Shown here: positions 21,194 through 38,579 of the stretch, in pieces
Layout: each line of letters starts with the position of its first letter
Numbering within the stretch: position 1 is the stretch's first letter
Source: Oceanispirochaeta sp.
GTDB lineage: Bacteria > Spirochaetota > Spirochaetia > DSM-2461
NCBI GenBank assembly: GCA_963663385.2
Contig: CAXXXD010000002.1
Span: 768,001 to 832,000 of the forward strand
Length of the DNA: 64,000 nucleotides
Direction: 5' to 3'
Program-made: the position numbers and the translations under genes
Notes under the pieces: generated by a model
Told to the model about the DNA's origin: nothing
What the model saw: the letters and a program-made list of their open reading frames with translations, nothing else
Databases searched by the model: none

Positions 21194-22654
21194 ATGTCAG
21201 AAGTATTTGATGTAACAGTTATCGGAGCCGGAGTGACCGGTGCGGCCATTGCCCGGAAGCTTTCATCCTACAATTTGAAAACTGTCATTGTCGAAAAGGA
21301 GTGCGATGTCAGCTTCGGGGTGTCAAAGGCGAATTCCGGGATCATTCACGGCGGATTCCACCATGATTCCTCCTCCCTGAAATCCCGTCTGGAGGTTAAG
21401 GGAAATATTATGTTCGATCAGCTGAAGGAAGAGCTGCACTTTCCTTTTACCCGCTGCGGCATTGTAGTGGCGGCCTTCAATAACGAAGAGATGCGAACCG
21501 TTGAAAAACTTTATGAAAACGGTGTGAATAACAAGGCTGTAGGCATTGAATTGTGTAATCACGAGCGGATACTTGCCCTCGAACCCAAATTGAATCCCGA
21601 TGTAACGGGCGGTCTGTATGCTCCGGGAGGAGGGATTATCGAGCCCTACCGTTTTGTCTTTGCTCTTATGGAATCAGCCGGAAAGAACGGGGTTGAACTT
21701 CTGAAAGGTTTTCGGGTCGTCAGGGGGGTGCTGAAGGGAGACTATTATGAGATAAGCGCCGAAGACAGCCGGGTTATCAGGTCCAGATGGGTTGTGAATG
21801 CGGCAGGGCTGTACTGTGATCAGGTTTCCAGAGCCTTTCAGGCGGAAGAGTACGAGATTAAAGCCCGAAAGGGAGAGGAGTTTCTGCTGGATAAAAACTC
21901 ACCCGCCTATACAAGCCGGGTTGTTTTCCCGGCCCCTTCCAGAAAATCCAAGGGGATGCTGGTTATTCCCACGGTGGAGAAGACCACCATGGTGGGACCC
22001 ACAGCTGAAATGGTTGAGGACAAAGAGGATGCCGCCACATCCCGGGAGAATTTCTTCAAGATCTTTTCCAGTGCCAAAAGGCTGGTACCGGCAGTTTCGG
22101 AAAGGGATATTATCACCTCCTTTACCGGCCTCAGGCCGACTCTGGAGGGGGAGGATTTTTATATCAGCCCTTCCGGTAAAATCCCCCGTTTTATTCAGGT
22201 GGCCGGGATTCAGTCTCCTGGCCTGACCGCCTCTCCGGCTATTGCGGATTATGTGAAGGATATTCTGAAGAAACAGGGGCTTCGGCTGGTTGAAAAGCCG
22301 GATTATGATCCCCATATCGATAGGGTCCCCCGTTTTCATAACAGCAGCCGGGAAGAAGTGGACAGGCTGATAAAGGAAAATCCCGCCTACGGGGAAATCA
22401 TCTGCCGCTGTGAAAGTATTTCAGAAGCAGAGATTGTTGCCGCTATCCGGCAGGGTCATACGACTCTGGATGGAATCAAGTTCTATACAAGAGCCATGAT
22501 GGGGCGCTGCCAGGGTGGATTCTGCACCTATAAGATAATGAAAATTATCTCCCGGGAGACGGGAATCCCCATGGATGAGATCACAAAAAGGGGCGGATCC
22601 AGCTGGATTGTTAATAAAAAGGTGGGGGATTATCCCCTGGGAAAAGAATCATGA
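21194..22654 (+). CDS. FAD-dependent oxidoreductase with C-terminal BFD-like [2Fe-2S] domain (GlpA-like glycerol-3-phosphate dehydrogenase)
   Basis: VIGAGVTG, SKANSGIIHGG, SPGLTASPA, ICRCE...GRCQGGFC. Confidence 0.85.
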   Translation: MSEVFDVTVIGAGVTGAAIARKLSSYNLKTVIVEKECDVSFGVSKANSGIIHGGFHHDSSSLKSRLEVKGNIMFDQLKEELHFPFTRCGIVVAAFNNEEMRTVEKLYENGVNNKAVGIELCNHERILALEPKLNPDVTGGLYAPGGGIIEPYRFVFALMESAGKNGVELLKGFRVVRGVLKGDYYEISAEDSRVIRSRWVVNAAGLYCDQVSRAFQAEEYEIKARKGEEFLLDKNSPAYTSRVVFPAPSRKSKGMLVIPTVEKTTMVGPTAEMVEDKEDAATSRENFFKIFSSAKRLVPAVSERDIITSFTGLRPTLEGEDFYISPSGKIPRFIQVAGIQSPGLTASPAIADYVKDILKKQGLRLVEKPDYDPHIDRVPRFHNSSREEVDRLIKENPAYGEIICRCESISEAEIVAAIRQGHTTLDGIKFYTRAMMGRCQGGFCTYKIMKIISRETGIPMDEITKRGGSSWIVNKKVGDYPLGKES

Positions 22655-23913
22655 AAAAGATTACCAAAGAAGTTCTTGTCATAGGCGGCGGTTCCGCCGG
22701 AATGGCCGCTGCAGCCGAAATTTCAGAGAAGGGGCATTCTGTTGTCATTATTGAACGGGAATCCACCATGGGCGGTATCCTCAATCAGTGTATTCACAAC
22801 GGGTTTGGTCTGCACCGCTTTAAAGAGGAACTGACCGGTCCGGAATATGCCGAAAAATACATCGGTATCATAAAAGGACTGGGTATTGAATACTATACGG
22901 GAACAACCGTATCCGAAATTGAAGATAGGGGGGATTATAAAGTTGTTTATGCCTTTTCTTCCGTTAACGGAATGCTGGAAATAACCGTACAGGCCATTGT
23001 CCTGGCTATGGGGTGCCGTGAAAGAAACCGGGGGAATATCGGTACCGCCGGAACCAGGCCCTCCGGAATCTATACGGCGGGCCTGGCCCAGAGGCTGGTC
23101 AATGTGGACGGCCTGATGCCAGGATCAAGGTGTGTGATTGTAGGCTCGGGCGATATCGGTCTGATTATGGCCAGACGGATGTCCTGGGTGGGAGCGAAGG
23201 TCAGCGCTGTGGTGGAGATTCAGCCCTATCCGGCAGGTCTGACCAGAAATATCGTTCAGTGTCTGAATGACTTTGATATTCCCCTCTACCTCTCCCATGT
23301 GGTATCCCGGATTTATGGAAAGGACCGGGTGGAAGGCGTGGATATTACCCCTCTGAAAAACGGTATGGAAATGGTAGAGGATACCTTTCATGTGGAGTGC
23401 GACACCCTTCTTCTCTCCGTGGGGCTCGTCCCGGATAACGAAGTGTCACAGAAAGCGGGGGTAGAAATCAACAAAGAGACCAGCGGTCCCCTTGTTGACA
23501 GCAGGCTGATGACCAGTGTGGAGGGGATTTTTGCCAGCGGCAATGTGCTGCATGTTCACGATCTGGTGGATTATGTCACTGAAGAGTCACAGCGCTGCGG
23601 GACTTATGTTTGCGAATATCTTGAAAACAGAAAAGAGCAGGAACAGTATTCCATTACGCCCGGGAGCAACCTAAAATATGTTGTTCCCAATAAGTTTGCA
23701 GCCGGAAGGGATAATAAATTTTATATGCGGAGTATGATTGTCAAGAATCAGGCCCAGCTTGTTCTTACTCTGGACGGGAAAGAGATCGTACGAAAAAAAC
23801 AGACTCACATTCAGCCGTCCGAGATGATCAGCTATACCCTGAAAAAAGAGGACCTTCCACAGGAAGCATTAAATGAAGACAGCTGTCTGGAAATCAGTCT
23901 GATGGAATCATAA
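22651..23913 (+). CDS. FAD/NAD(P)-dependent pyridine nucleotide-disulfide oxidoreductase (partner of the GlpA-like subunit)
   Basis: IGGGSAG, GGILNQCIHNGFG, GSGDIGLIMARR, GNVLHVHDLVD; ATGA overlap. Confidence 0.85.
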   Translation: MKKITKEVLVIGGGSAGMAAAAEISEKGHSVVIIERESTMGGILNQCIHNGFGLHRFKEELTGPEYAEKYIGIIKGLGIEYYTGTTVSEIEDRGDYKVVYAFSSVNGMLEITVQAIVLAMGCRERNRGNIGTAGTRPSGIYTAGLAQRLVNVDGLMPGSRCVIVGSGDIGLIMARRMSWVGAKVSAVVEIQPYPAGLTRNIVQCLNDFDIPLYLSHVVSRIYGKDRVEGVDITPLKNGMEMVEDTFHVECDTLLLSVGLVPDNEVSQKAGVEINKETSGPLVDSRLMTSVEGIFASGNVLHVHDLVDYVTEESQRCGTYVCEYLENRKEQEQYSITPGSNLKYVVPNKFAAGRDNKFYMRSMIVKNQAQLVLTLDGKEIVRKKQTHIQPSEMISYTLKKEDLPQEALNEDSCLEISLMES

Positions 23914-23938
23914 TCAAAAGGGAAACGAGGAGAAAAGT

Positions 23939-24313
23939 ATGAAAAAGAGCATGATCTGTATCAGCTGCCCCATCGGGTGTCATCTGACGGTTTCCTGCAG
24001 TGACAGTGAAACTGTTACCCCTGAGACCATTCAGGTGGAGGGAAATAAATGCCCCCGGGGGATAATCTACGGCAAAGAGGAGATATTCGCTCCCAAACGG
24101 GTTGTTACCGCAACCTGTGCCATTGAATCGGGGCTGATGGACCGTATACCTGTAAAATCCACCGGAGCCGTAATGAAAGAGGATATCAACGGACTTCTGA
24201 AGGAGCTGTATCAGATGCGGCTGACGGCGCCCGCAAAAATGGGAGATGTGATTATCCGTGACTATAAAAAATCCGGTGTGGATATTGTCACCACCCGGTC
24301 ATTGCTGAGTTAA
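23939..24313 (+). CDS. DUF1667-family small metal-binding protein
   Basis: CISCPIGC...GNKCPRG; third gene of the conserved GlpA-like triad. Confidence 0.85.
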   Translation: MKKSMICISCPIGCHLTVSCSDSETVTPETIQVEGNKCPRGIIYGKEEIFAPKRVVTATCAIESGLMDRIPVKSTGAVMKEDINGLLKELYQMRLTAPAKMGDVIIRDYKKSGVDIVTTRSLLS

Positions 24314-24608: not shown

Positions 24609-26240
24609 TTATCGATAATAATAAAGCTTTCCATTGATATTATATGTACCACCGGCATCCTGAATAGTAAAATCAACTACAAGGGTTTCCTCTGTATTCA
24701 TATCAAAGTTGATAGGCCATCCGGCTTGAGCTTCTATCTCATTCGGTGAATTGTCAGGATGTCTGAACCAGACCATATCATCTACAGTATCAAGAGTCGT
24801 ATAACCGCTGGTATCACCGATGGTTATGGGAAAAGATCCGTCTGTTTCCAGCTCAATTCCATGATCGCCTGATATTGTAAAGTTCAGGGTAGCGCCTTCT
24901 GCTCTTGTTGTAAACTCTGCCGATACATCACTTGAATAGAAGTATTGGTTTGGTATGGAATTAATCATTCCCGTATATTGAACGGCATGATATTTCTGCG
25001 GCGTACTGCTGGAGCCGGTTTTATATAACAGATTCATATTAACAGCATCTGTATCGTAACTGCCGCTGTCGGAAATATTAAAACTGAAGTTTTGAACCTC
25101 ACCCAAGTTAACATCATCCCAACCGGGGAATTTGGGGTAGCGTACTTCCATGCCGATACTGTCATTTATGGCTGTTGAACCTCCTCCGAAATAATCCGTC
25201 CCATTATGATTTGATGATACATTCCATCTGTTGAATGTTGAATCATAGCTAATGTTATGGGATGTTCCGATACCGCTGGAACGATTAATAAACAGATTGT
25301 AATTCAGGTTTGTGTCATAAGAACCATAACTGTCATTGAATGTATAAAAAGCATAGATAAAGTTCTCATCCTGAGCCAGATATATCTCATTATAATCTGA
25401 ATTGTACTGACTATAACCGTCTGTTTCGTCCGGATCAGTATACCAGGGAGAAATGGAAGCCCAGTCCTCATTGTTTCCATCTATAACCGGAGTCAGTACG
25501 GGTAAATTCAAAACGGACTGATCAATATCCGGATCGGTCTGCCAGGTGGGTCTGAGTACGAAGGAAGGGGCATTATCCGTATCGTCCACGGTTCTGCTCT
25601 CACTCTCGTACCACATGTCCACATTCAGTTCATAAGCGGTCCCGTATTCCAGGTTCTCCAGGTAGCTCCCCTTGTAGATGGCCACCTCCAGGGCGTTGGC
25701 GTCCGTATCCATCCCGGCAAAGCGGATCTGGGGATTGGCAATATTCGTCCACTCCCAGCTTGTGGATTCATTCTTGTACCCCATCCAGGTATTGTACGAA
25801 CCGTTTATATCATGGCTCATACTGAAAATCTGAAGATGGCTGCCGTGACCTTCCTCATCAACTTCAGGTCCGTTCATATTAACATGAATATGCAGCTCTT
25901 CTGTCTGACAGGGAGGGTAACCGTGGGTTGATATATAGAGGTAAATATTGTTGGCGTCCTCCGCTATTTTTATCTGGTACAGGTCTCCCCCGTCGGGCAT
26001 TTCGGTACCTTCGGCAAGATCTCCTTCGGAGTCCACGTAAACCGGGGATATGGCGTCCCAGTCCGCGGTATCACCATCAATTACAAGACCTTCCGCACTG
26101 GCAATTTCTCCGGAACTGACGTTCCGGTCCGGGTCATAGGGGTTGTCGAACTCGTAGTCATTATATAAAAAGCACCCTCCTGCCAGAGTCAGGGTCAGGA
26201 GGGCCGCTAGAATATAAGGTGATCTTTTCATGTTTTTCAT
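24609..26240 (-). CDS. Acidic lipoprotein with two internal DOMON/CBM9-like repeats, function unknown
   Basis: Signal peptide with lipobox LAGGC; repeats VIDGDTADWDAISPVYVD...EDANNIY and VIDGNNEDWASISPWYTD...QDENFIY. Confidence 0.75.
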   Translation of the reverse strand: MKNMKRSPYILAALLTLTLAGGCFLYNDYEFDNPYDPDRNVSSGEIASAEGLVIDGDTADWDAISPVYVDSEGDLAEGTEMPDGGDLYQIKIAEDANNIYLYISTHGYPPCQTEELHIHVNMNGPEVDEEGHGSHLQIFSMSHDINGSYNTWMGYKNESTSWEWTNIANPQIRFAGMDTDANALEVAIYKGSYLENLEYGTAYELNVDMWYESESRTVDDTDNAPSFVLRPTWQTDPDIDQSVLNLPVLTPVIDGNNEDWASISPWYTDPDETDGYSQYNSDYNEIYLAQDENFIYAFYTFNDSYGSYDTNLNYNLFINRSSGIGTSHNISYDSTFNRWNVSSNHNGTDYFGGGSTAINDSIGMEVRYPKFPGWDDVNLGEVQNFSFNISDSGSYDTDAVNMNLLYKTGSSSTPQKYHAVQYTGMINSIPNQYFYSSDVSAEFTTRAEGATLNFTISGDHGIELETDGSFPITIGDTSGYTTLDTVDDMVWFRHPDNSPNEIEAQAGWPINFDMNTEETLVVDFTIQDAGGTYNINGKLYYYR

Positions 26241-26427
26241 TATAGCAGAGGATCTTACCAGACTCTATGTTAAATTTAAACAAGCCCGTCATTTCCAATG
26301 GTTCTTCTGTCAGGAATTAGAGATAATCCGGTTAGTGAACGGTTGACTTTTACCTGTTCCGTTAAGGTTTGTTAACATGGGCGGTTTTTCTTTGACTAAA
26401 TGGCGGTTCTGTTTTTAATGTGTTTTT

Positions 26428-27309
26428 ATGGACCAACTGGATCAATTGGAAAGCATCGGCATCCGCATCCTCCGGGAAGCGTATGCCAACTTCAGGAACC
26501 TGTGCATGCTCTGGTCAATCGGCAAAGACAGCACCGTCCTCCTGTGGCTGGCCCGTAAAGCCTTCTACGGTCATGTCCCTTTTCCTCTGGTGCACATCGA
26601 TACCCATCATAAAATCCCGGAGATGATCGAGTACCGGGACCGTCTGACCAGGGAGTGGAAACTCCCCATGGTTTACGGGGAGAACGCGGAAGCCCTCGAA
26701 GCCAAACAAACCTTCCCGGACGGGAAGGCCGACCGTCTGACCTGCTGCCGGCTGCTTAAGGCGGAAGCCCTGAAGAATACCCTGAACGGAAGCTGGAAGC
26801 GCTACCGTTTTGATCATAACGCCGACCGGTATGCTCCGGATGAAGACACAGAGATGTATACCGGTGTCATCGTGGGCGTCCGGGCGGATGAAGAGGGCTC
26901 CCGTTCCAAGGAGAGGTATTTCAGCCCCCGGGACAGGGAGAATATCTGGGATGTGGGGGACCAGCCCCCCGAGTTCTGGAACCAGTTTAAAACGGATTAT
27001 GCTCCGGGAACCCATGTCAGGATCCATCCCCTTCTGGACTGGACTGAGCTGAATATCTGGGAGTATATCCAGAGGGAGAGTATCCCGACGGTCTCCCTCT
27101 ATTACAACCGGGGGGACGGCAAACGCTACCGGTCTCTGGGCTGCGGCCCCTGTACGGTTCCCGTGGAATCGGATGCCAGGACTGTGGCGGAAATTATCGA
27201 AGAGCTGAAAACCGGCAGGTTCGCCAATATAGCCGAGCGGTCCGGTCGGGCCCAGGACAAGGATGACGGGGGCGGTCTGGAAACCCTCAGGCGGGACGGG
27301 TACATGTAA
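26428..27309 (+). CDS. cysD: Sulfate adenylyltransferase subunit 2
   Basis: [10 protein letters not shown]-loop, [35 protein letters not shown]-terminal GYM; TAATG coupling to cysN. Confidence 0.92.
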
Positions 27310-29117
27310 TGCGGAAAGAACAGATGAATATCGTTTTTACCGGTCATGTGGATCACGGAAAGAGCACCGTGGTGGGGCGTCTCCTGGCAGACACGGAGAG
27401 CCTTCCCGAAGGAAAGCTGGAACAGGTGAAAAAAGAGTGTGAGAGAAACTCAAAACCCTTCGAGTATGCCTTTCTGCTGGATGCTCTCAAGGATGAACAG
27501 TCCCAGGGAATTACTATCGATTCGGCCCGGGTGTTTTTCAACACGGATAAGCGGGACTACATAATTATTGATGCGCCGGGGCATATAGAGTTTCTGAAAA
27601 ACATGATTACCGGAGCGGCCCGGGCGGAAGCGGCCTTCCTGGTGATTGATGCGGACGAAGGGGTCCAGGAAAACTCCCGCCGTCACGGCTACCTCCTTTC
27701 CATGCTGGGAATCCGGCAGCTTTGCGTACTGGTTAATAAAATGGACCTTGTTGACTACAGCCGGCCTGTCTATAACCGGATCGTCCGGAGGTATACCCGC
27801 TTTCTGCGGAATATCAATCTGAGTGATGTCAATTTTATTCCTGTCAGCGGCCGGGAAGGGGACAATATCTTTCACAAGGGTGAGAACATGCCCTGGTGGG
27901 ACGGGGGAACGGTTCTGGATCTGCTGGATAATTTTGAAAAAGAGAAGGACCTGATCCATCTGCCCATGCGGATGCCCGTTACGGATATCTACAAATTTAC
28001 CAATCACGGCGACAGCCGGCGTATTATAGCCGGCACTGTGGAAACGGGGTATTTCACTCAGGGGGACGAACTGATCTTCTACCCCTCCGGGAAGAAAAGC
28101 CGCATAAAATCGGTGGAGGCATTTAACGCGGATGTCCCTGACAGAATCAGTGCCGGCATGGCTACCGGGGTGACTCTGGAAGAGCAGATCTATCTTTCCC
28201 GGGGGGCTGTCGCCTGCCGGTCCGACCAGATGCCCCCCAAAGTGGGGAACTGCCTTAAAGTCAGCCTTTTCTGGCTGGGGAAAGAGTCCCTGAAAACGGG
28301 GAAAGAGTACTTCCTCAAGACTGGAACCGCCAGAGTCCGGGCCCAGCTTGTGGAAGTTTCAAGGGTCATAGACGCATCTACCCTTGATGCCGAAGTCAGG
28401 GATAATCAGGTGAACCGTCATGATGTGGCCGAATGCGTATTCAGTCTGCAGAAGGCAATCGCCTTTGATCTGGTGGAAGAACTTCCTCAGACCAGCCGTT
28501 TCGTTCTGGTGGATGAGTATGAAATCGCCGGGGGCGGGATTATCCGTGATCTGGATGACCGGGGACAGGCCGAGTATGGGGAAAAACTGATCAGGCGGAA
28601 CCTGGAATGGGAGAATGGCATTGTAACAGAACTGGACCGGATGCAGGCTTACGGTCAGAGACCCGCCCTTATCCTTGTTACGGGAGAACAGGGCTGCGGG
28701 AAAAAAGTTTTTGCGGAAAAGCTGGAAAAAGAGTTTTTCCGTCTGGAGAAGAAAGTCTACTACCTGGGGTATAAAAGCCTTGAATACGGGCTGGATTCGG
28801 ATCTGAAGACGGGAAAGCGCTTCCGGCTGCAGCAGGCTGTCCGGGAGGAGCATATCCGCAGGATTGCCGAAATTGCCCATATTATGATGGATGCCGGGCT
28901 TTTTCTTATCATCAGGATTGATAACCTGTCTTATGAGGAACGGGATCTGATTCAGCTTCTGATCGGTTCGTCCCGACTGAAAACTGTATGGGTCGGGAAG
29001 GATATAACAACGGATATAGAACCGGACTGGCATATTAAACGGCCACTGGATGTGGACGAACACATGAGGAAGGTGGAACAGATTATGATCGATTGGGAAC
29101 TGGTAGAGGTACGGTGA
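27309..29117 (+). CDS. cysN: Sulfate adenylyltransferase subunit 1 (GTPase) fused to a degenerate APS-kinase-like domain
   Basis: [25 protein letters not shown]-terminal GEQGCGKK...[17 protein letters not shown]. Confidence 0.9.
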
Positions 29118-30409
29118 TGAGTGGAGCATTTGAAAAATCGGAATACAAAGTGAAAGCCCTCTGCTGCGGCAGAATCCTGAGCGATGAGGGACAGCCCCTG
29201 GTCTGTCCGGATTGCCCGGAATCTCATTTTTTAAGGACAGAATATGCAGACAAACAGCTGAAACTCAAAGACGATTCTCTCGGTTTGTATAAATACAGCG
29301 GATGGCTGCCGGTTGAGAGAGTCCTGGAGGGATCCGCCGCTCCCGTCAGCTATAGAAGTACCGCTCTGGCAGAAAAACTGGGGCTGGAAAATCTCTGGAT
29401 AACCTTTAACGGCTGGTGGCCTGAAAAAGGGGCCGCCATGAAAACAGGAACATTCAAGGAGTGCGAAGCCTATTCGGTTTGCGCCCGTATCCCACGGGAT
29501 AAAAAGGGCATTCTGGTTGTGGCATCCGCGGGAAATACGGCGCGGGCTTTTGCCCGGGTCTGCTCCGATAACAATATCCCCCTTGTTATTACCATTCCCG
29601 AAGATAATATTGGGGCCATGTGGTCGGATAAACCCCTGGCGGACTGTGTGAAAATAGTGGCGGTTTCAGCGGGGGCCGACTATTTTGATGCCATTTCCCT
29701 GGCGGGGAAGCTCTGCAGGGGAGAAGGCTATTTCCCCGAAGGGGGCGCCAGGAATATAGCCCGCCGGGACGGAATGGGGACAACCGTCCTGTCTGCGGTA
29801 ACCGCCATGGGACGAATCCCGGACTACTATTTTCAGGCTGTCGGAAGCGGAACCGGCGCCATTGCCGCCTGGGAGGCAAATCTGCGCTTTCTGAAAGACG
29901 GACGGTACGGGAACAGCAAGATGAAGCTTATGGTCTCCCAGAACGCCCCTTTTCAGATAATCTATGATTCCTGGAAACAGGACAGCCGGGGACTGGTTCC
30001 CCTGGATGATAATCTGGCCCGGGATCAGGTAACGGCCATGGATGCCAAGGTCCTGTCCAACCGCAAGCCTCCGTACTCCCTTCCCGACGGGCTCTATGAT
30101 GCCCTGAAAGACTCGAAAGGGGATGTTTTCCTGGCAGACAACAGGGAAGCTGAAGAGGCCGGACGGCTGTTTCAGGAGTGTGAAGGCATTGATATCTCCC
30201 CGGCGGCTTCGGTTGCGGTTGCTTCTCTGGTGAAGGCCGTCGAAAGCGGCGCTGTGGGAAGGAAAGAAAGAATTATGCTGAATATTACAGGGGGCGGAAC
30301 AAAGCGTTTCGCCGCCGAGTTTACTGTGCGGTATGCCGGGGCTGATCTTGTCTTTGATCCGGATGTGGAAGAGGGAACTCTGATAGACGAAGTTAATAAA
30401 TTATTTTAA
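29117..30409 (+). CDS. Cysteate synthase (PLP enzyme, threonine-synthase fold; CapA-like)
   Basis: TGTFKECEA PLP lysine, VASAGNTARAF, GGARNIARRDGMGT, YFQAVGSGTG, VLSNRKPPYS; TGATG coupling to cysN. Confidence 0.85.
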   Translation: MSGAFEKSEYKVKALCCGRILSDEGQPLVCPDCPESHFLRTEYADKQLKLKDDSLGLYKYSGWLPVERVLEGSAAPVSYRSTALAEKLGLENLWITFNGWWPEKGAAMKTGTFKECEAYSVCARIPRDKKGILVVASAGNTARAFARVCSDNNIPLVITIPEDNIGAMWSDKPLADCVKIVAVSAGADYFDAISLAGKLCRGEGYFPEGGARNIARRDGMGTTVLSAVTAMGRIPDYYFQAVGSGTGAIAAWEANLRFLKDGRYGNSKMKLMVSQNAPFQIIYDSWKQDSRGLVPLDDNLARDQVTAMDAKVLSNRKPPYSLPDGLYDALKDSKGDVFLADNREAEEAGRLFQECEGIDISPAASVAVASLVKAVESGAVGRKERIMLNITGGGTKRFAAEFTVRYAGADLVFDPDVEEGTLIDEVNKLF

Positions 30410-30448
30410 TACTGGTCCGCCGGATGACGGATACAAGGAGATAATAAA

Positions 30449-31735
30449 ATGAGCGTGGACATTTTTGACAAATGTAAAGGAGACGGAGGTTACTTCGGAA
30501 AATACCGGGCGGCAGGAGATAAAGATCTGACAAGACCCACTATGGACCCCATCCCCGGAAAGACCATGATGTACAACAACGAGGAGTATGTCATGTGGTC
30601 CGTGAACAACTATATTGGACTGGCTGAAAATCAGGAGATAAAGGCTGCCGCCGCACAGGCTCTTGAAACATACGGAACAAGCGCCCCCATGGGATCCCGG
30701 ATGATGAGCGGCAATACCATTCATCATCAGAACCTGGAAAAGCGTTTTGCAGAACTGTCCCGGAAAGAGGCTGCCTACCTTTTTAACTTTGGCTATCTGG
30801 GCGTTCTGGGTATTGTGTCCTCCCTCTGCGGTCCCAAAGATACGGTCGTGGTGGATAAACTGGCCCATGCCTGTATCCTGGATGCGGCCATGATGGCAAA
30901 AGCTTCGGGAGCAAAGATCCGTTACTTCAAGCACAACAACATGGAAGACCTGGAACAGGTTTTGGATAGTGTCAATAAAGACCGGGAAGGCGGTGTGATG
31001 ATCCTGATTGAAGGCGTGTACGGTATGACTGGCGACCTGGCGGATCTGCCCGGCATCTGCGCCCTGAAAGAGAAGTACAACGCCCGTCTGTTTATCGATG
31101 ATGCTCACGGTATAGGTGTTATGGGCGAAAAGGGCCGTGGAACGGGAGACCACTTCGGTGTTCAGGACAGGATCGATATCTACTTCGGAACCTTTGCCAA
31201 GGCTTTCGCTTCCATAGGCGGCTTCTGTGCGGCCGATCAGGATGTTATCGACTGGATCGCCTACAACTCAAGAACCCAGGTTTTTGCCAAGAGCCTCCCC
31301 ATGGTCTATGTAAAAACCCTGGATAAAACCCTGGACTATGTTATTGACGGGGATAACCGCAGAAAGACAATGTGGGACAACTCGAACAAGCTGAGAGACG
31401 GTCTGCGGGATCTGGGATACTACATCGGCACAGGGGAGTCTCCCATCTGTTCCGTTTTTACTCCTACCGGGAGTGATGATCCCAATGGAATGGGGGTCCG
31501 GATGGTAAAATACCTCAGGGAGAATAACATCTTTGTTACGGCTGTTGTATACCCCGTTATCCCTCCCGGGCTTTGTATGTTCCGGATGATCCCCACCACA
31601 TCCCATACGGATGCGGAAATCAATAGAACTATTGAGGTATTCGCCGCCATGAAAAAGGACCTTGATCTGGAAGACACCGTAACGGAAGAGGATATCAGAA
31701 AGATCAGCAAAGTCTACAGAAAAAGACAGGACTGA
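30449..31735 (+). CDS. Cysteate acyl-ACP/CoA C-acyltransferase (3-ketocapnine synthase, SulA/CapB-type alpha-oxoamine synthase)
   Basis: WSVNNYIGLA, HACILD, DDAHG, GTFAK(251) PLP lysine, QVFAK(281)SLPM; directly after cysteate synthase. Confidence 0.82.
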   Translation: MSVDIFDKCKGDGGYFGKYRAAGDKDLTRPTMDPIPGKTMMYNNEEYVMWSVNNYIGLAENQEIKAAAAQALETYGTSAPMGSRMMSGNTIHHQNLEKRFAELSRKEAAYLFNFGYLGVLGIVSSLCGPKDTVVVDKLAHACILDAAMMAKASGAKIRYFKHNNMEDLEQVLDSVNKDREGGVMILIEGVYGMTGDLADLPGICALKEKYNARLFIDDAHGIGVMGEKGRGTGDHFGVQDRIDIYFGTFAKAFASIGGFCAADQDVIDWIAYNSRTQVFAKSLPMVYVKTLDKTLDYVIDGDNRRKTMWDNSNKLRDGLRDLGYYIGTGESPICSVFTPTGSDDPNGMGVRMVKYLRENNIFVTAVVYPVIPPGLCMFRMIPTTSHTDAEINRTIEVFAAMKKDLDLEDTVTEEDIRKISKVYRKRQD

Positions 31736-31736
31736 T

Positions 31737-32444
31737 GTGAAAAACAGAGTTACACTCTGGTGTCATGAGTTGGCTGGGGCCTCCCCGCAGGAGGTTCTTG
31801 CCTGGGCTTATAAAACATTTGATCTGTCCAGAATCGCTCTCTCTAACAGTCTGGGGCTGGAGGACATGGTATTAACGGATATGCTGATGAAACTCGATCA
31901 GGAGTTCCCCGTATTCACCCTGGATACGGGGCGTCTCTTTCAGGAAACCTATGATCTGATGGAAGAGGCTCGGCTTAAATGGAAGCTGTCCATGAAGGTT
32001 CTGTTTCCCGACAGGGCTGCCGTCGAGGCTCTTGTCCGGGAAAAAGGGCCGAACTCCTTCTATTACAGCCTGGAAAACCGGAAAGAGTGCTGCCGTATAC
32101 GGAAAATTGACCCCCTCAAACGGGAGCTGTCCACCCTGGATGCCTGGATCTGCGGGCTCCGGAAGGAGCAGTCGGTTACCCGGACGGCGGTTCGGAAGGT
32201 GGAGTGGGATGAGGCGTTCGGTCTGATTAAATTGAACCCGCTGGCAGACTGGTCGGAGCAGCAGTGCAGGGATTATGCAAAGGACAATCATGTTCCCGTG
32301 CACTCTCTTCATAAAAAAGGGTTTCCCTCTATCGGCTGCGCCCCCTGTACCAGAGCTGTTAAGCCGGGAGAGGATATACGGGCCGGCCGCTGGTGGTGGG
32401 AGAATCCCGAAAGCAGGGAGTGCGGGCTGCATAGGAAATCTTGA
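31737..32444 (+). CDS. cysH: Adenosine 5'-phosphosulfate (APS) reductase, [4Fe-4S] type
   Basis: LDTG, ECCRIRK, SIGCAPCT, RAGRWWWE, ECGLH; GTG start. Confidence 0.9.
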   Translation: MKNRVTLWCHELAGASPQEVLAWAYKTFDLSRIALSNSLGLEDMVLTDMLMKLDQEFPVFTLDTGRLFQETYDLMEEARLKWKLSMKVLFPDRAAVEALVREKGPNSFYYSLENRKECCRIRKIDPLKRELSTLDAWICGLRKEQSVTRTAVRKVEWDEAFGLIKLNPLADWSEQQCRDYAKDNHVPVHSLHKKGFPSIGCAPCTRAVKPGEDIRAGRWWWENPESRECGLHRKS

Positions 32445-32486
32445 GGTATCCGAAGTCCCATGCTAATATTCTCTCCGGAGAATACT

Positions 32487-33659
32487 ATGAAAATAAAGTC
32501 GCCGTTATTTTATATAAAACTGTTTTTACTAATCTTTTCATTCTTCCTTTTTTCATGTGAAGAGGCCGGTAACACAGCTCCCGATGAAGAACTGGAGGAG
32601 ATCGTTGAGGAGGAATCAGCCTCCATCTTTTTTAGAAATCCACCGGCCAACGGATCGGCCCTGCCTTCGGAGTTTTCCTTGAATGCGGCCTATTCCATTC
32701 CGGATTCCCTTTTTCAGGAAGGGCACAGTTATTCTATTAAGGCCTGTTTTGAAACGGCAGACGGTTGCTATGAGGCGGCAGATTTCCCTCTGACAGAACA
32801 GTCTAAGACATCCTTCTCCATCAGTTTTGCCCTTACCAGTGAGGGGCTTCCTACCGATGCGGTTGTTCCTTTCAATCTGTCCCTTGCCCTGTACGATACA
32901 ACGGTCGATCCGGCTGTAAAGCTCTGTTCCTCCTCTTCCATTCAGTATAATGGAGTGGCATACGGGAACTGGTATGAAATAGGCTCAAAAATTGTAATTA
33001 CCAATACGCAGATGTGGATCTACCATTACAAGGGGTCCGGCCGGGGGTATGTAGCTGATATGAGGGGCTCCATGGTAAGGTTGGGGCACAACAAATATCA
33101 GACCAATGTGGAACAGGAATTTGATTCTGATACGGGAGAGTGGGTGGATATTCCCGAAGAATATCTTTCCCGGTACGTTTCTGTTGACTACCTAAATGTA
33201 CAGAAAGACGGGCGTCTGCATATCTGTAACGAAGCGGGGGATATTACCCATAATATGCTCCCCTCTGAAAGTGGCTACACCTATGACGCGGATTATTCCG
33301 GTAAGTGGTGGACTGATGATCTGAAGATAGACCCGGCGGATAATGGATCGGTTCTGTGGTTTTCTGATAATTATTTTCAGCTACAGCAGGATGATCAGCA
33401 GAAAGGAGAAGATGCTTCTTTTCCTGTATATGAGATCGGAACAGTCTCAGATAATGCCGGAACCCTGACCCTGAATGTCACTCATGTGGGCAGCGGAGAG
33501 GGCTTTGAGGAAATCGATTCGGGAAAAGAATATACCTTTACCTATGTTTATGATCCTGATGCTGTACCTGATGAGACTCTCGTTCTGACGGGCGGTCCGT
33601 TTATTGACGGCGGTGCCACTGTTTTGAACTTTGACTTATCCAGTAAATATGAAAAATAG
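32487..33659 (+). CDS. Hypothetical acidic lipoprotein
   Basis: GGAG RBS before MKIKSPLFY; hydrophobic stretch ending FLFSC (spirochaetal lipobox); no family recognised. Confidence 0.7.
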   Translation: MKIKSPLFYIKLFLLIFSFFLFSCEEAGNTAPDEELEEIVEEESASIFFRNPPANGSALPSEFSLNAAYSIPDSLFQEGHSYSIKACFETADGCYEAADFPLTEQSKTSFSISFALTSEGLPTDAVVPFNLSLALYDTTVDPAVKLCSSSSIQYNGVAYGNWYEIGSKIVITNTQMWIYHYKGSGRGYVADMRGSMVRLGHNKYQTNVEQEFDSDTGEWVDIPEEYLSRYVSVDYLNVQKDGRLHICNEAGDITHNMLPSESGYTYDADYSGKWWTDDLKIDPADNGSVLWFSDNYFQLQQDDQQKGEDASFPVYEIGTVSDNAGTLTLNVTHVGSGEGFEEIDSGKEYTFTYVYDPDAVPDETLVLTGGPFIDGGATVLNFDLSSKYEK

Positions 33660-33688: not shown

Positions 33689-33713
33689 AAAACCGCTGAA
33701 TAGCGGTTTTTTT
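33689..33713 (+). terminator. Rho-independent terminator
   Basis: AAAACCGCT-GAAT-AGCGGTTTT-TTT. Confidence 0.85.
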
Positions 33714-33849: not shown

Positions 33850-36800
33850 ATGGAACTTAAAACAATCAGAGAATATTTCAAGTATATGGTCACCGCCCGG
33901 GAATTGGATCTTCTGGAACAGAGTTATACGGGAAGGGGCGAAGCTTTCTTTCATGTTTCCGGTGCCGGTCATGAAGGTTCCTGTATTTTAAATAGTGTAT
34001 TGGAGGAGCAGGATTATCTCCATGTCCATTACAGGGATAAAGCCCTGATGATGGCCCGGGGTATGGATCCCGAAATGTTTTTTCTGTCCCTTTTTAATAA
34101 AGAAGGATCTCATTCCAAAGGACGGCAGATGGTCGCCCATATGAGCGACCCCGACCATAATATCCTCAGTATGGCCGGTCCTGTGGGAAACAGTAACCTC
34201 CATGCTGCAGGTGTGGCAGAAGCTGTAAAAGGGCAGAAAGGAAATCCCGTTGTTCTCAGTTCTCTGGGAGATGGAATGTCTCAGGAAGGGGATGTGCTCG
34301 AAGCCATAGCCCATGCGGCCCGGAAAGAACTTCCGGTTCTTTTTCTGGTTCAGGACAACGGTTTTGCTATTTCTACCAAAACAAAAGGGAATACCTTTTT
34401 TTCCCGGCCGGAAGGAGAGGCAGATTCGTTCTACGGCATACCCATTACCAGAATGGATGGCCGCTACCCCCAGAACCTTTACAGGCCCATGAAAGAGGTC
34501 GTGGACGGTATCCGGCAAACGGGGAAACCCGCCATCATTGTCATGTCCGTGGAACGCCTTCACAGTCATACCAATGCGGATGACCATAGAGTCTACCGGA
34601 CCGATGAAGAGATCAAAGCCCTTCATGAATCAAGTGATCCGGTGGATCAGCTGCACAGCTGGCTTCTGGATCAGGGTGTTTCGGAAGATGAACTGGCTGC
34701 AGAACGGCAAGAGATTATCGCCGATCTGAAAGAGAAGGCCCATAAAGCCCAGATTTCTCCCGAACCCGAGCCTGTCTATACAGCCAAAAAAGAGATCCCT
34801 GCTCATCTCACCGACCGGAAGCAGGAGTACCGCGGTACCCCCGGCAAGGAAGAACTGACCATGCTGGAAGCGATTAAGGAGACCCTCCGTTTTCACCTGG
34901 ACCGTAATCCCGCAGTAGAACTGTTCGGGGAGGACCTGGAAGATCCCAAGGGGGATGTATTCGGACTGACCAAAACCCTTTCGACCCAGTTCCCCGGACG
35001 GGTTGAAAACAGTCCTCTGGCGGAAGCCTCCATTGTCGGTCTGTCTATCGGGCGGGCTCTGGCGGGTAAACACCCTGTTGCTTTCCTCCAGTTTGCCGAC
35101 TTTCTGCCTATTGCCTTCAATCAGCTGTGGGCCGATGCAGGGAGCATGTACTGGCGAACCGAAGGCGGATGGGAGTGCCCCATGATCATTATGGTCTCCT
35201 GTGGTGCCTACAAGCCCGGAATCGGTCCCTTCCATGCCTCCAGTATGGAAGCCGTTGCCGCGCATATTCCCGGTATCGATGTGGTTATGCCCTCTACAGC
35301 AGGAGATGCTGCCGGTCTGCTCAACGCGGCCTTTGAATCGGGAAGACCAACCGTATATTTCTATCCTAAAGTTTGCCTCAACGATGTTCAGGCAAAAACA
35401 AGTTCTGATGTTTCCCGCCAGCTTGTTCCCCTGGGAATTGCCAGAAAAGTCAGCGAAGGCGAACACGTCACCTTTGTTTCATACGGCAATACAATAAGGC
35501 TGTGTCAGAAAGCGGCGGAAGCTCTGGGTAAACACAATATTACAAGTGATCTTATTGACCTTCGTTCCATCTCCCCCTGGGATCAGGAGATGGTTCTGGA
35601 ATCAGCCGAAAAAACAGGCCGGGTGATTATCGTTCATGAAGAGAATAAAACAGCCTCGATCTCTTCGGAAGTGGCTGCCTTTCTGGCGGAAAAATCCTCC
35701 CGAAAACTGAATATTAAACGAATTACCCGGGAAGATACCTATGTTCCCTGTAATTTTGATTGTCAGCTGGAAGTCCTTCCTTCCTACAAAGGAATTCTGG
35801 AAGCGGCTGCAGAGATGTTCGGCGGATCTGTCTGCTGGAAGAAGGAAGAGCTGGCTCAGGCCGGTTCTTTTACGGTCGAGATAATCGGTACCAGTCCGGC
35901 AGATGAAACGGCTACCGTTATTGAATGGAAGGTTGAAGCCGGTGATACCATTGAAGAGGGTGATCTGCTGGCTGAGATCGAAGCGGACAAGGCGGCAGCC
36001 GAGATGAAGTCCCCCGTTTCCGGTGTTGTCGAAGAGCTGATCCTGGAGGAGGGAGAGGCTGTCGCCATCGGCGCCCCCGCTCTCAAGGTAAAAACCAGCG
36101 AAACTGCCGCGGTCTCTCTCAAGCCTAAAACCAAAGAGGAGCCCGGGGAACCCGTTATCACCGGGATGACAGTTGTTTCAGAGACAAAAGATTCCGTTCC
36201 GGCAGCAGCCTCCGGAGACCGCCGCCCCTTCCTGCTGGATATTGCAGGTGTGCAGGGCAGCCGGGAAGTCCTGAATGATGAGATTATGGAATCCTGTTCC
36301 GGATGGAGTGAGGGCGAAATCCTGAAAATGACGGGAATCGAGAAGCGGAACTGGATTGGTGAAGGGGAGGATGTGGTCTCCCTGGCCAGTAAAGCCGCCA
36401 AAACTGTTCTTGAGAGAAACAGCCTTACCCTGGATGATCTCAGTCTGATTCTTGTTTCAAGCGGAACCCCCGGTACCATGACACCTTCCCTGGCAACACG
36501 GGTGCAATACAACTTAATGCCCGACGGCAAGAGGCAGCCGGCCTGTGCCGCTTTTGATATCAATGCCGCCTGTTCCGGTTACCTGTACGGTCTGCAGTCC
36601 TCCTGGGACTTTCTGAACAGCCGGCCCGACGGGCTTATTCTGCTTATTACGGCTGAGGTTCTGTCCCCCCTGGTGGATCCTTCCGATAAATCCACATCTG
36701 CTGTGTTTGGCGACGGCGCAACCGCCTCTCTGATCGCCGGAGTGGACCACGCTCTGAAGAACAGGGGGCGGGCCAGGATTTTCCGGCCCGTTACCGCAGC

Positions 36801-37191
36801 ATCGGGTGAACCCGGGGATATCCTGACGGTTCCCGCCAATCCGGCCGAGACTATCTATATGCATGGTCCCAAAGTGTATCTGGAAGCTGTTGCCAGCATG
36901 ATCTCTGTTCTGGATGATGCCTGTAAACAGGAGGAGAAGGGACTGGATGAACTGTCCCTGATTGTCCCGCATCAGGCTAATCAGAGGATTATCAATGCGG
37001 TACGTCAGAGACTGAAGATCGAAGAAGATCAGATATACAGCGAGATCCGCTACAGGGGAAATACTTCCTCCTGTACAATCCCGTTCTGTCTGGAATCCCT
37101 GATACAGGACGGGCGTTCCGGCCAGACCCTCGGGATGACAGCTTTCGGCGGCGGTTTCACCTCCGCCGGGGGACTGCTGGAAATCCTTTAA
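33850..37191 (+). CDS. Fusion protein: 2-oxoacid dehydrogenase E1alpha + E1beta + lipoyl domain + beta-ketoacyl-ACP synthase III (FabH)
   Basis: TPP motif GDG...VQDN; E1beta FGEDL, SPLAEASIVG, GPFHA; lipoyl EADK(714)A; KAS III triad AAC(908)SG, PH(1041)QAN, GN(1071)TS, TAFGGG. Confidence 0.9.
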   Translation: MELKTIREYFKYMVTARELDLLEQSYTGRGEAFFHVSGAGHEGSCILNSVLEEQDYLHVHYRDKALMMARGMDPEMFFLSLFNKEGSHSKGRQMVAHMSDPDHNILSMAGPVGNSNLHAAGVAEAVKGQKGNPVVLSSLGDGMSQEGDVLEAIAHAARKELPVLFLVQDNGFAISTKTKGNTFFSRPEGEADSFYGIPITRMDGRYPQNLYRPMKEVVDGIRQTGKPAIIVMSVERLHSHTNADDHRVYRTDEEIKALHESSDPVDQLHSWLLDQGVSEDELAAERQEIIADLKEKAHKAQISPEPEPVYTAKKEIPAHLTDRKQEYRGTPGKEELTMLEAIKETLRFHLDRNPAVELFGEDLEDPKGDVFGLTKTLSTQFPGRVENSPLAEASIVGLSIGRALAGKHPVAFLQFADFLPIAFNQLWADAGSMYWRTEGGWECPMIIMVSCGAYKPGIGPFHASSMEAVAAHIPGIDVVMPSTAGDAAGLLNAAFESGRPTVYFYPKVCLNDVQAKTSSDVSRQLVPLGIARKVSEGEHVTFVSYGNTIRLCQKAAEALGKHNITSDLIDLRSISPWDQEMVLESAEKTGRVIIVHEENKTASISSEVAAFLAEKSSRKLNIKRITREDTYVPCNFDCQLEVLPSYKGILEAAAEMFGGSVCWKKEELAQAGSFTVEIIGTSPADETATVIEWKVEAGDTIEEGDLLAEIEADKAAAEMKSPVSGVVEELILEEGEAVAIGAPALKVKTSETAAVSLKPKTKEEPGEPVITGMTVVSETKDSVPAAASGDRRPFLLDIAGVQGSREVLNDEIMESCSGWSEGEILKMTGIEKRNWIGEGEDVVSLASKAAKTVLERNSLTLDDLSLILVSSGTPGTMTPSLATRVQYNLMPDGKRQPACAAFDINAACSGYLYGLQSSWDFLNSRPDGLILLITAEVLSPLVDPSDKSTSAVFGDGATASLIAGVDHALKNRGRARIFRPVTAASGEPGDILTVPANPAETIYMHGPKVYLEAVASMISVLDDACKQEEKGLDELSLIVPHQANQRIINAVRQRLKIEEDQIYSEIRYRGNTSSCTIPFCLESLIQDGRSGQTLGMTAFGGGFTSAGGLLEIL

Positions 37192-37511: not shown

Positions 37512-38579
37512 CTAGTCCTTCACCCGTCCCAGACCAAGCATTTTCAGCATCCATCTGGGAAGGGCCTTCTCCGGATCCCTTTTCTGCAGGTTCAGATACC
37601 AGTTCCACTTTTTCAAAATGGGGATCTTGTGGGTCTCCACAAATTCGATCAGGGTACCGTCCGGATCTTCTATATAGGTAAAACGTCCGGCCGCCTCTCC
37701 CATATCAAAAGAGTTCCTGCTGTCCACTGTAAAAGGGTAGCCCATGGCATTCAGTTTTTCTCCCAGACCGTCCATATTATAAATATCAAAGCAGAGATGG
37801 ATAAAACCGGCGTCTCCCCAGTAGCGGCCTTCGAATACTTTCCCAGGAGCTCGGTCCAGGCTCTGTATCAGTTCTATGCTGCTGTAGCCGAACATCTCCG
37901 CAAAAGCCCCTTTCCTGGGTTCCGTGTGGGTCAGAAGAACTCTCCGGAATGTCCCGTCTCCACCGGGAAGGGCTGCAAGATCCTTAAAACAACCGGTCTG
38001 ATCGTAGGCAATAACCGGAAAACCCAGGGCTTCCCGATAGAGAGGCAGGACCTTGTCTATATCGCCGACCCCTACGCTGGCGCCGCAGGGACCGCCGGTC
38101 AAGCCGGGTTTTCCGTAAAAGTCGTCTCTTTGAGTCTGGACAATATCAAAAATGTTCCCGAAGGGATCCCGGACAAAGAAGTGCTCCATCCCTGCAGGAT
38201 CCTTCATAATGCCGCCCGGCAGGTCCAGTCCTTCATCACTGTAAAAGGCATAGGTCCTTTTTACATCGGGTGATTTGATTTTTCCTGTAAGAATGCCCAG
38301 GTCTCCGATCTTCAGAGGCTCCGCTGGAGAGGCTGTTTTCCGGCTGGTATACTGCCATATTTCAAAACCGCTCCCGCCAGTCAGGTTCAAAGCCAGAACC
38401 GCATCCCGCCCCTGCACCTTGTTACCCGTATACTGTGTCATCAAAGGGGCATCCGCTGCCTCCTGAAAGACAGGAATATCCATTCCAAAGTATTTTCTGT
38501 ACCACTCCCAGGCTTTGTCCCGGTCGGCTACTCCAATCCCAAGCTGCTGAATCCCGCTGATTATAATGCTCATATTCAT
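37512..38579 (-). CDS. VOC (glyoxalase/bleomycin-resistance fold) protein with tandem domains
   Basis: IQQLGIGV, FEIWQY, FFVRDPFGN, GFIHLCFDI, YIEDPDGTLIEFVE. Confidence 0.8.
   Translation of the reverse strand: MNMSIIISGIQQLGIGVADRDKAWEWYRKYFGMDIPVFQEAADAPLMTQYTGNKVQGRDAVLALNLTGGSGFEIWQYTSRKTASPAEPLKIGDLGILTGKIKSPDVKRTYAFYSDEGLDLPGGIMKDPAGMEHFFVRDPFGNIFDIVQTQRDDFYGKPGLTGGPCGASVGVGDIDKVLPLYREALGFPVIAYDQTGCFKDLAALPGGDGTFRRVLLTHTEPRKGAFAEMFGYSSIELIQSLDRAPGKVFEGRYWGDAGFIHLCFDIYNMDGLGEKLNAMGYPFTVDSRNSFDMGEAAGRFTYIEDPDGTLIEFVETHKIPILKKWNWYLNLQKRDPEKALPRWMLKMLGLGRVKD

Follow-up and report, generated by a model that had tools for sequence, protein, structure and literature searches.

We analyzed a 64,000-nucleotide stretch of the genome of Oceanispirochaeta sp. 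(contig CAXXXD010000002.1 of assembly GCA_963663385.2, positions 768,001 to 832,000 of the forward strand; hereafter, the window), which forms part of contig 2 of a 5.3-Mb, four-contig genome that is 98% complete. Window positions 26428-33659 hold six codirectional genes on the plus strand, as established from the open reading frame (ORF) listing and by reading the gene junctions. The first five encode a divergent paralogue of the small subunit of sulfate adenylyltransferase (cysD, 26428..27309), the GTPase subunit of that enzyme with a degenerate C-terminal domain resembling adenosine 5′-phosphosulfate (APS) kinase (cysN, 27309..29117), a putative cysteate synthase of the archaeal, ThrC-like type (29117..30409), an alpha-oxoamine synthase of the CFAT/SulA/CapB type (30449..31735), and a thioredoxin-dependent APS reductase (cysH, 31737..32444). 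Taken together, these genes quite probably form an autonomous pathway that converts sulfate to a sulfonated long-chain base. A first-pass annotation, made from the letters alone, had proposed such a route toward capnine-type sulfonolipids and had placed the five codirectional genes at the same positions.

The genes are tightly coupled. cysD and cysN overlap in a TAATG that shares base 27309, and cysN and the cysteate synthase gene overlap in a TGATG that shares base 29117; a gap of 39 bp (30410-30448) then precedes the CFAT gene, which is separated from cysH by a single base pair (31736). Our reading of these four junctions agreed with the first-pass annotation, which listed no gene beyond cysH. 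A sixth ORF (32460..33659, plus strand; 399 amino acids) starts 15 bp past cysH and encodes an orphan lipoprotein-like product with a lipoprotein-type signal peptide ending in Cys and no match in Pfam or NCBIfam. Because the first hairpin with a U-run after the operon start comes only beyond this ORF (33689..33713, plus strand; 9-bp stem and 4-nt loop in the centroid fold), the transcription unit most likely comprises six genes ended by a single intrinsic terminator. The folding energy of the hairpin was unexceptional relative to shuffled sequences (z = −1.03).

Upstream of cysD, alignment of nine sequences from the genus identified a promoter-like region (26392..26421, plus strand) that consists of a −35 element (TTGACT, 26392-26397), of which TTGAC is invariant in 9/9 sequences, and a −10-like hexamer (TAATGT, 26416-26421; conserved as TAnnGT) that ends 6 nt ahead of the cysD ATG. 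A second conserved motif, TTAAGrTTTnTTAAy (26362..26376, plus strand), has invariant core letters in 9/9 aligned upstream regions and is a candidate regulator site. This arrangement suggests that the cysD transcript is regulated and leaderless or near-leaderless. A pattern scan of the window showed no excess of promoter-like (15 versus 9.9 in shuffled sequences) or terminator-like (17 versus 14.1) elements and overlooked both the conserved cysD promoter and the terminal hairpin; in a search of the whole window against Rfam, no family attained its gathering threshold.

Family assignments of the operon enzymes

The product of 29117..30409 scored 474.7 bits against the cysteate synthase equivalog TIGR03844 (cut-off, 324.9 bits) and at most 66 bits against threonine synthase models. 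It also aligned end to end with a solved protein named "Cysteate synthase" (PDB 9k3c; 500.6 bits, residues 5-427 to 4-426), for which our literature search found no paper. The protein thus passes the family cut-off as a cysteate synthase, in agreement with the first-pass annotation, and is predicted to convert O-phosphoserine and sulfite to cysteate.

The best solved match of the alpha-oxoamine synthase was the CFAT of Capnocytophaga (CapB/COCFAT, PDB 28eh; 348.1 bits), described in PMC13692747, followed by Alistipes SulA (PDB 7u7h; 325.8 bits over residues 3-405) and serine palmitoyltransferase (SPT; 230 bits). The SulA/CapB type named in the first-pass annotation is borne out by these scores (348 and 326 versus 230 bits), and the candidate scored below the curated cut-offs of all NCBIfam models (those for SPT, BioF, Kbl, and ALAS), including the SPT model NF047600 (297.4 bits; cut-off, 640). 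Bacterial SPT (Sphingobacterium multivorum, PDB 3a2b) shares the scaffold of a fold-type I alpha-oxoamine synthase dependent on pyridoxal phosphate (PLP), and its chemistry, but differs from CFAT at F-G-Y 114-116, C142, E188, F246, A250, and K281. For the Capnocytophaga enzyme, the accessible text of PMC13692747 lists the amino acids that surround the PLP-cysteate adduct. In our alignment, 16 of these 18 pocket residues were identical in the window protein (N53, G82, F114, G115, Y116, H140, C142, E188, D217, H220, F246, T248, A250, K251, F279, and K281), the two changes being A82S and M277V. With reference to the same text, K251 aligns with Lys250, the catalytic PLP lysine of COCFAT, K281 corresponds to the trans-subunit Lys280, and Phe113-Gly114-Tyr115 is also kept. 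These comparisons support the assignment of 30449..31735 to the CFAT type, whose predicted reaction joins cysteate and an acyl thioester into a 3-ketocapnine-type base. Contig 1 encodes a further, separate paralogue of the alpha-oxoamine synthase.

To place the window CFAT among its relatives, we built a tree (IQ-TREE quick mode, LG+G4) of 101 rows: the window protein, a single paralogue encoded by the same genome, and sequences from 99 of 101 loci, with L108 left out for too short a match and L133 for having no CFAT. Because the tree held no assayed enzyme (nor any named SPT), the assignment to the family is based on comparison with PDB entries and on the residues of the pocket. The window CFAT fell within a 36-row clade with support of 96 in the Shimodaira-Hasegawa approximate likelihood ratio test (SH-aLRT), comprising 32 spirochaete sequences, 2 from Aminicenantes, 1 from a Bacteroidetes-labeled metagenome-assembled genome, and 1 labeled Bacillus. 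This clade was sister to a 45-row Bacteroidota CFAT clade (SH-aLRT, 100; joint support, 99), and 17 alpha-oxoamine synthase rows of mixed phyla (36-39% identity) branched outside the CFAT clades. The nearest named relatives (56-62% identity) were all labeled spirochaetes. The Bacillus salacetis-labeled locus (L048) carries a CFAT-clade gene of 52-54% identity that is nested among the spirochaete sequences, and it could reflect transfer or a different substrate.

The first-pass identities of cysD, cysN, and the APS reductase gene were likewise supported by family scores and, for the reductase, by motifs. The operon CysD matched PF01507 (128.8 bits) and NF003587 (340 bits; cut-off, 195) and is 75-90% identical to the copies of spirochaete relatives, and CysN passed TIGR02034 (338.8 bits; cut-off, 336.1). 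The tail of CysN is not an intact APS kinase domain (TIGR00455, 43.7 versus 138.7 bits; Pfam, 42 bits). APS kinase activity needs the Ser/Thr of the Walker A motif, LDGDN, and a C-terminal motif. Aligned with the canonical CysNC of the same genome, the tail has the Walker A sequence GEQGCGKK, without Ser/Thr, and is missing both LDGDN and the C-terminal motif; it is probably inactive. CysH, which is single-copy in the genome, passed TIGR02055 (255.8 bits; cut-off, 235.3), and its translation contains CC...CxxC and ECGLH, the motifs that mark reductases of APS rather than of 3′-phosphoadenosine 5′-phosphosulfate (PAPS).

A second sulfate-activating pair, missed by the first-pass annotation, is encoded on contig 4 (L153:7998-11615) and clears every curated cut-off applied to the operon pair. 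Its CysD is canonical (TIGR02039, 474 bits), and its CysNC is bifunctional (NF004035, 910 bits; apsK, 240.7 bits) with an intact APS kinase domain. The neighboring genes encode a glycosyltransferase (GT2), UDP-galactopyranose mutase, an ABC-2 exporter, and a TauE-family protein, and this pair probably supplies PAPS for sulfated surface glycans. In the simplest interpretation, the two pairs divide the work between them: the operon CysD and CysN would provide APS for CysH, with the resulting sulfite going to cysteate.

Distribution of the module and its candidate VOC partner

To determine how widely the module occurs, we searched a phylum sample of 400 other genomes and a set of the 40 nearest relatives, including 10 genomes of the same genus. 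In the phylum sample, TIGR03844 was present in 24/400 genomes, and a CFAT-type gene (at least 49% identity) was found in 23 of these 24 compared with 0 of the other 376; all remaining hits to the CFAT query were at or below 38% identity. The sole synthase-positive genome with no CFAT-type hit (G070) is 89% complete and divided into 590 contigs. Among the 40 relatives, the synthase was detected in 19, the CFAT type in 19, and both in 18; in the relative with a synthase outside the shared 18 (G420), this gene lies at a contig end.

Within the genus, eight of the 10 other genomes carry the synthase, the CFAT gene, and a gene for a VOC protein described below, and the remaining two have none of the three. 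The order cysD-cysN-cysteate synthase-CFAT-cysH was kept in 8/8 genus loci fetched. Other genera of the same family have cysD-cysN-cysteate synthase-CFAT, with an APS reductase above cut-off elsewhere in 3/3 genomes checked. Families f57 and f58 contain the operon core in three loci, two of which continue into cysH while the third stretch ends at a contig end, and in family f19 the synthase is present in 17/17 genomes, with the synthase and CFAT genes unlinked. The synteny that the first-pass annotation proposed to check across Spirochaetaceae is found in all genus loci fetched and in loci of other families. Because the gene order recurs in relatives and the synthase and CFAT genes co-occur, the arrangement is beyond chance; what the genes are, how they are ordered and coupled, and how far they are conserved and occur together can all be read directly from the DNA. 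Such a module, conserved and vertically kept in no fewer than seven of the spirochaete families sampled, a spread that the first-pass annotation had missed, would add a second phylum to the sulfonolipid makers.

Beyond this sample, we examined 80 named loci. The synthase adjoins CFAT in seven of these, all labeled spirochaetes, and none of the 45 Bacteroidota-labeled loci had a synthase within 10 kb of the CFAT gene. TIGR03844 matched in nine of the 50 CFAT-bearing named genomes searched (of the 80); its absence from the other 41 agrees with the accessible text of PMC10191378, according to which Flavobacteria-type producers use an unrelated CapA.

The module has a further candidate partner that was not listed in the first-pass annotation. 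The gene at 37512..38579 (minus strand), convergent to the operon, encodes a 355-amino-acid, two-domain VOC protein of the glyoxalase/dioxygenase fold (PF00903), a putative metalloenzyme. It belongs to no specific NCBIfam family, and a PDB sequence search returned nothing specific; its structural model, with a predicted local distance difference test score of 89.9, resembles only generic two-domain VOC proteins such as PcpA, monomeric glyoxalase I, and GLOD4 at template modeling scores of 0.5-0.6 and 11-15% identity. The invariant residues Gln11/Gln12, Glu73, His261, and Glu312/Glu315 could form a metal site. A VOC orthologue abuts the 3′ end of the CFAT gene in 6/9 annotated spirochaete loci as well as in L132, L146, and L147, and in the genus of the window a fusion gene (33850..37191) stands between the two. 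Across the phylum sample, a VOC homologue was detected in 18/24 synthase-positive genomes (8 at 47-55% and 10 at 28-33% identity) versus 0/376 others. It was also found in 20/40 relatives, namely, all 19 with the synthase and one CFAT-positive genome (G438). In the named genomes, the corresponding counts were 13/31 for the CFAT clade and 0/19 for the outer clades. The co-occurrence recurs in several families and two phyla, with the related genomes not being independent of one another. These results suggest that the VOC protein is a candidate for an extra step of the pathway, coinherited with the synthase and CFAT; it could, for example, act on the alpha-amino-ketone intermediate (by epimerization or isomerization) or oxidize the chain. 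Our literature search on VOC proteins with sulfonolipids found nothing relevant. The protein, which part of the Bacteroidota with CFAT also have, offers a concrete candidate for a missing step and one open to testing in Bacteroidota models.

Proposed pathway and alternative readings

The genome is that of a spirochaete, as the first-pass annotation had held. It contains three FlaA genes, a family that matched 0/14 control genomes; the operon and FlaA lie on one multimegabase contig in 5/5 relatives checked, and the G+C content is in line with that of the four contigs. A Bacteroidota origin of the window is excluded. The NIR_SIR sulfite reductase domain (PF01077) was detected nowhere in this 98%-complete genome, nor in 5/5 other CFAT-clade genomes checked, and the same search matched 11/14 control genomes. 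CysK is encoded on another contig, and on these grounds the earlier view that the locus does not serve cysteine synthesis stands. SerC and a SulP homologue are also found elsewhere in the genome. Because there is no sulfite reductase domain, a second and canonical CysD-CysNC pair is present, and the operon itself has only a degenerate kinase tail, the operon looks dedicated to sulfonate synthesis.

In the pathway that we propose, the divergent CysD/CysN pair would convert sulfate to APS, and with a kinase-like tail that is probably inactive, APS would not be drained to PAPS. CysH, as an iron-sulfur APS reductase, would then reduce APS to sulfite. Because the genome has no sulfite reductase, sulfite would have no route to sulfide, and cysteine would be made by CysK from external sulfide. 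The ThrC-like cysteate synthase would swap the phosphate of O-phosphoserine for sulfite to give cysteate, and the CFAT-type PLP enzyme would carry out the decarboxylative condensation of cysteate with a long-chain acyl-acyl carrier protein or acyl-coenzyme A, yielding 3-ketocapnine or a closely similar compound. Unlinked enzymes are assumed to reduce this product to capnine and to N-acylate capnine to a membrane sulfonolipid, and the coinherited VOC protein may contribute an additional step or substitute for one. These enzyme activities, like the length of the acyl chain and the nature of the final lipid, are all predictions drawn from sequence. We advance only tentatively the broader idea that several free-living spirochaete lineages make capnine-type sulfonolipids via an autonomous sulfate-to-ketocapnine operon with a kinase-dead CysNC paralogue that reserves APS for sulfite and that the VOC protein is an unrecognized sulfonolipid enzyme.

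Several observations weigh against this pathway. The A82S change gives the pocket the residue found in SPT at that position, and the spirochaete CFAT clade is sister to, not within, the clade that holds the orthologues of characterized enzymes. The operon CysD scored under the TIGR02039 cut-off (237.9 versus 396.6 bits), and CysN failed the bifunctional CysNC model NF004035 (434.3 bits; cut-off, 715). G438, a genome of the same class in one contig, has CFAT and VOC with no TIGR03844 match at E ≤ 1e-60, and the L048 genome has no TIGR03844, NIR_SIR, or VOC match. Pfam scans of the window found no short-chain dehydrogenase/reductase (SDR)-type ketoreductase or N-acyltransferase, in keeping with the first-pass statement that CapC and an N-acyltransferase are not visible there, and a genome-wide search returned 12 SDR genes (PF00106), scattered and with none linked to the operon.

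Known ketocapnine reductases are scattered, unlinked SDRs of low identity, and the literature read names no enzyme for capnine N-acylation. In two spirochaete lineages in which the synthase is unlinked, a PanE/ApbA-family NAD(P)H ketoreductase is encoded divergently beside CFAT (L046:5440-6462 and L049:8803-9849); in these lineages it is a possible ketocapnine reductase. In G438, the CFAT-type gene lies beside a partial VOC homologue (C1:1322688-1324733), and this genome has either another cysteate source or a decaying pathway. Because L048 has a CFAT-clade gene without the synthase, the CFAT clade may not always depend on a TIGR03844 synthase.

We weighed three alternatives to the proposed pathway. 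CqsA-type alpha-oxoamine synthases make autoinducers, and the CFAT-type enzyme might use acyl thioesters of short or medium chain length in its condensation with cysteate, yielding a soluble sulfonated amino-ketone (a signal or secondary metabolite) rather than a membrane lipid. The protein does show a weak match to an autoinducer synthase model (NF005526, 187.8 bits; cut-off, 428), its chain-length preference is unreadable from sequence, and the window holds no linked reductase or N-acyltransferase. We nevertheless consider this alternative unlikely: the likeness to two solved long-chain CFATs is full length and includes the N-terminal region, the window protein belongs to the sister group of the Bacteroidota CFATs, and CAI-1 synthase scored just 105.6 bits in the PDB comparison.

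In methanogens, cysteate synthase takes part in the synthesis of coenzyme M, and the control match of the family was Methanosarcina. Cysteate could accordingly be the end product or feed a soluble sulfonate (an osmolyte, taurine, or a sulfopyruvate-derived compound), with the alpha-oxoamine synthase, which has no formal family name at any NCBIfam cut-off, being an ordinary SPT, BioF, or Kbl. The retention of 16/18 cysteate/PLP pocket residues, among them K281, which is absent from SPT, makes this very improbable, as do the near-constant pairing of synthase and CFAT-type genes, the separate alpha-oxoamine synthase paralogue on contig 1, and a genome in which no sulfopyruvate decarboxylase scored above cut-off (best, 94.2 versus 147.95 bits). 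Finally, although cysD, cysN, and cysH are classical assimilation genes and most knowledge of sulfonolipid genes comes from Bacteroidota, it is extremely unlikely that the locus serves ordinary sulfate assimilation (for cysteine and methionine) or is a Bacteroidota contaminant or recent transfer, in view of the missing sulfite reductase domain here and in 5/5 other CFAT-clade genomes, the multimegabase contigs that carry the operon with FlaA in 5/5 relatives, the matching G+C content, and the separation of the spirochaete CFAT clade from that of Bacteroidota.

Sulfonolipids are outer-membrane and signaling lipids. They have been linked to gliding motility, choanoflagellate development, and TLR4-linked immune effects. 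The accessible text of a 2023 review (PMC10191378) limits their synthesis to Bacteroidota, and our search for sulfonolipids, capnine, or cysteate synthase in spirochaetes, with subscription papers outside its scope, returned no relevant paper, in line with the first-pass annotation, which knew of no such pathway described in Spirochaetota. According to two human-microbiota surveys, loose homologues occur in 13 and 21 phyla; their accessible text names no spirochaetes, nor does one supplement file of the first, and their other supplements and figures may list phyla.

Among the closest known systems, as described in the accessible part of PMC10191378, is the pathway of Alistipes finegoldii and Odoribacter, which likewise relies on a cysteate synthase of the ThrC-like kind (TIGR03844) together with a condensing enzyme of the SulA/CFAT type. 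The spirochaete locus differs in its phylum and in uniting cysteate synthase and CFAT in one operon with CysDN and CysH; an mLife paper reported no clustering of sulfonolipid genes in Chryseobacterium gleum and A. finegoldii. The CapA/CapB/CapC capnine pathway is known from Capnocytophaga ochracea and Ornithobacterium rhinotracheale (Liu et al. 2022, as cited in the accessible text of PMC10191378). According to that text, the Capnocytophaga-type CapA is not homologous to an archaeal-type synthase such as that of the operon, which also has no linked CapC-like reductase. The CysD, CysN, and APS reductase families are shared with CysDN(C)-CysH-CysJI assimilation, but here the genome has no sulfite reductase, the operon CysN has its degenerate kinase-like tail, and the predicted sulfite acceptor encoded by the operon is phosphoserine rather than a reductase. 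Sequence, context, and phyletic pattern thus give good support to a known pathway in a new variant, with a phylum lacking a prior description, a self-sufficient operon, and a candidate partner enzyme. The locus also suggests how anaerobes without sulfite reductase could obtain sulfite for these lipids, through a private CysDN-CysH branch insulated from PAPS synthesis, and cultured relatives would allow a direct test of sulfonolipid production.

Neighboring genes

The gene that separates the CFAT and VOC genes in this genus (33850..37191, plus strand) encodes a 1,113-amino-acid fusion of 2-oxoacid dehydrogenase E1 alpha, E1 beta, a lipoyl domain, and a FabH-type beta-ketoacyl-acyl carrier protein synthase III (KAS III). 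Its translation shows the lipoyl DKA lysine and the Cys/His/Asn motifs and contains no E2 catalytic domain; because such domains are present elsewhere in the genome, which also has a canonical FabH, nothing follows from this lack. The architecture is common to the top 120 database matches, of which all named ones are spirochaetes, and our literature search on such E1-lipoyl-FabH fusions found nothing. One may speculate that the fusion hands a branched acyl group from lipoamide directly to KAS III. We rejected it as a dedicated primer supplier for the pathway, as it occurs in 10/10 genus genomes, including the two without the operon, and is thus not tied to the sulfonolipid genes. It is likewise present in three other sampled families that have no synthase and was not seen in seven operon-core genomes of the same family. 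A fused E1 alpha-beta protein of about 757 amino acids is encoded a few kilobases from CFAT in L046 and L049 and adjoins the synthase gene in L031 and L036.

The orphan lipoprotein ORF at 32460..33659 was also considered as a pathway component and rejected. A search of 5.8 billion proteins, limited to near lengths, returned only the protein itself, and no homologue was found in the loci of relatives. With neither a family nor a homologue, it appears to be a strain-specific passenger in a variable slot. This slot, between cysH and the fusion gene, holds a SulP/STAS sulfate permease in 2/8 genus loci (L135:6245-7891 in G408 and L137:13353-15002 in G412, both of the same genus).

Upstream of the operon, a three-gene set on the plus strand (21194..24313) encodes a glycerol-3-phosphate oxidase-like flavin adenine dinucleotide enzyme with a BFD [2Fe-2S] domain, a Pyr_redox_2 flavoprotein, and a DUF1667 protein; it appears unrelated to the operon. 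Between this set and cysD, and divergent from the latter, lies a lipoprotein-like ORF of 543 amino acids (24609..26240, minus strand) that matches no family and is unrelated to the orphan lipoprotein; weak homologues (26-31% identity) occupy the same position in 5/8 genus loci.

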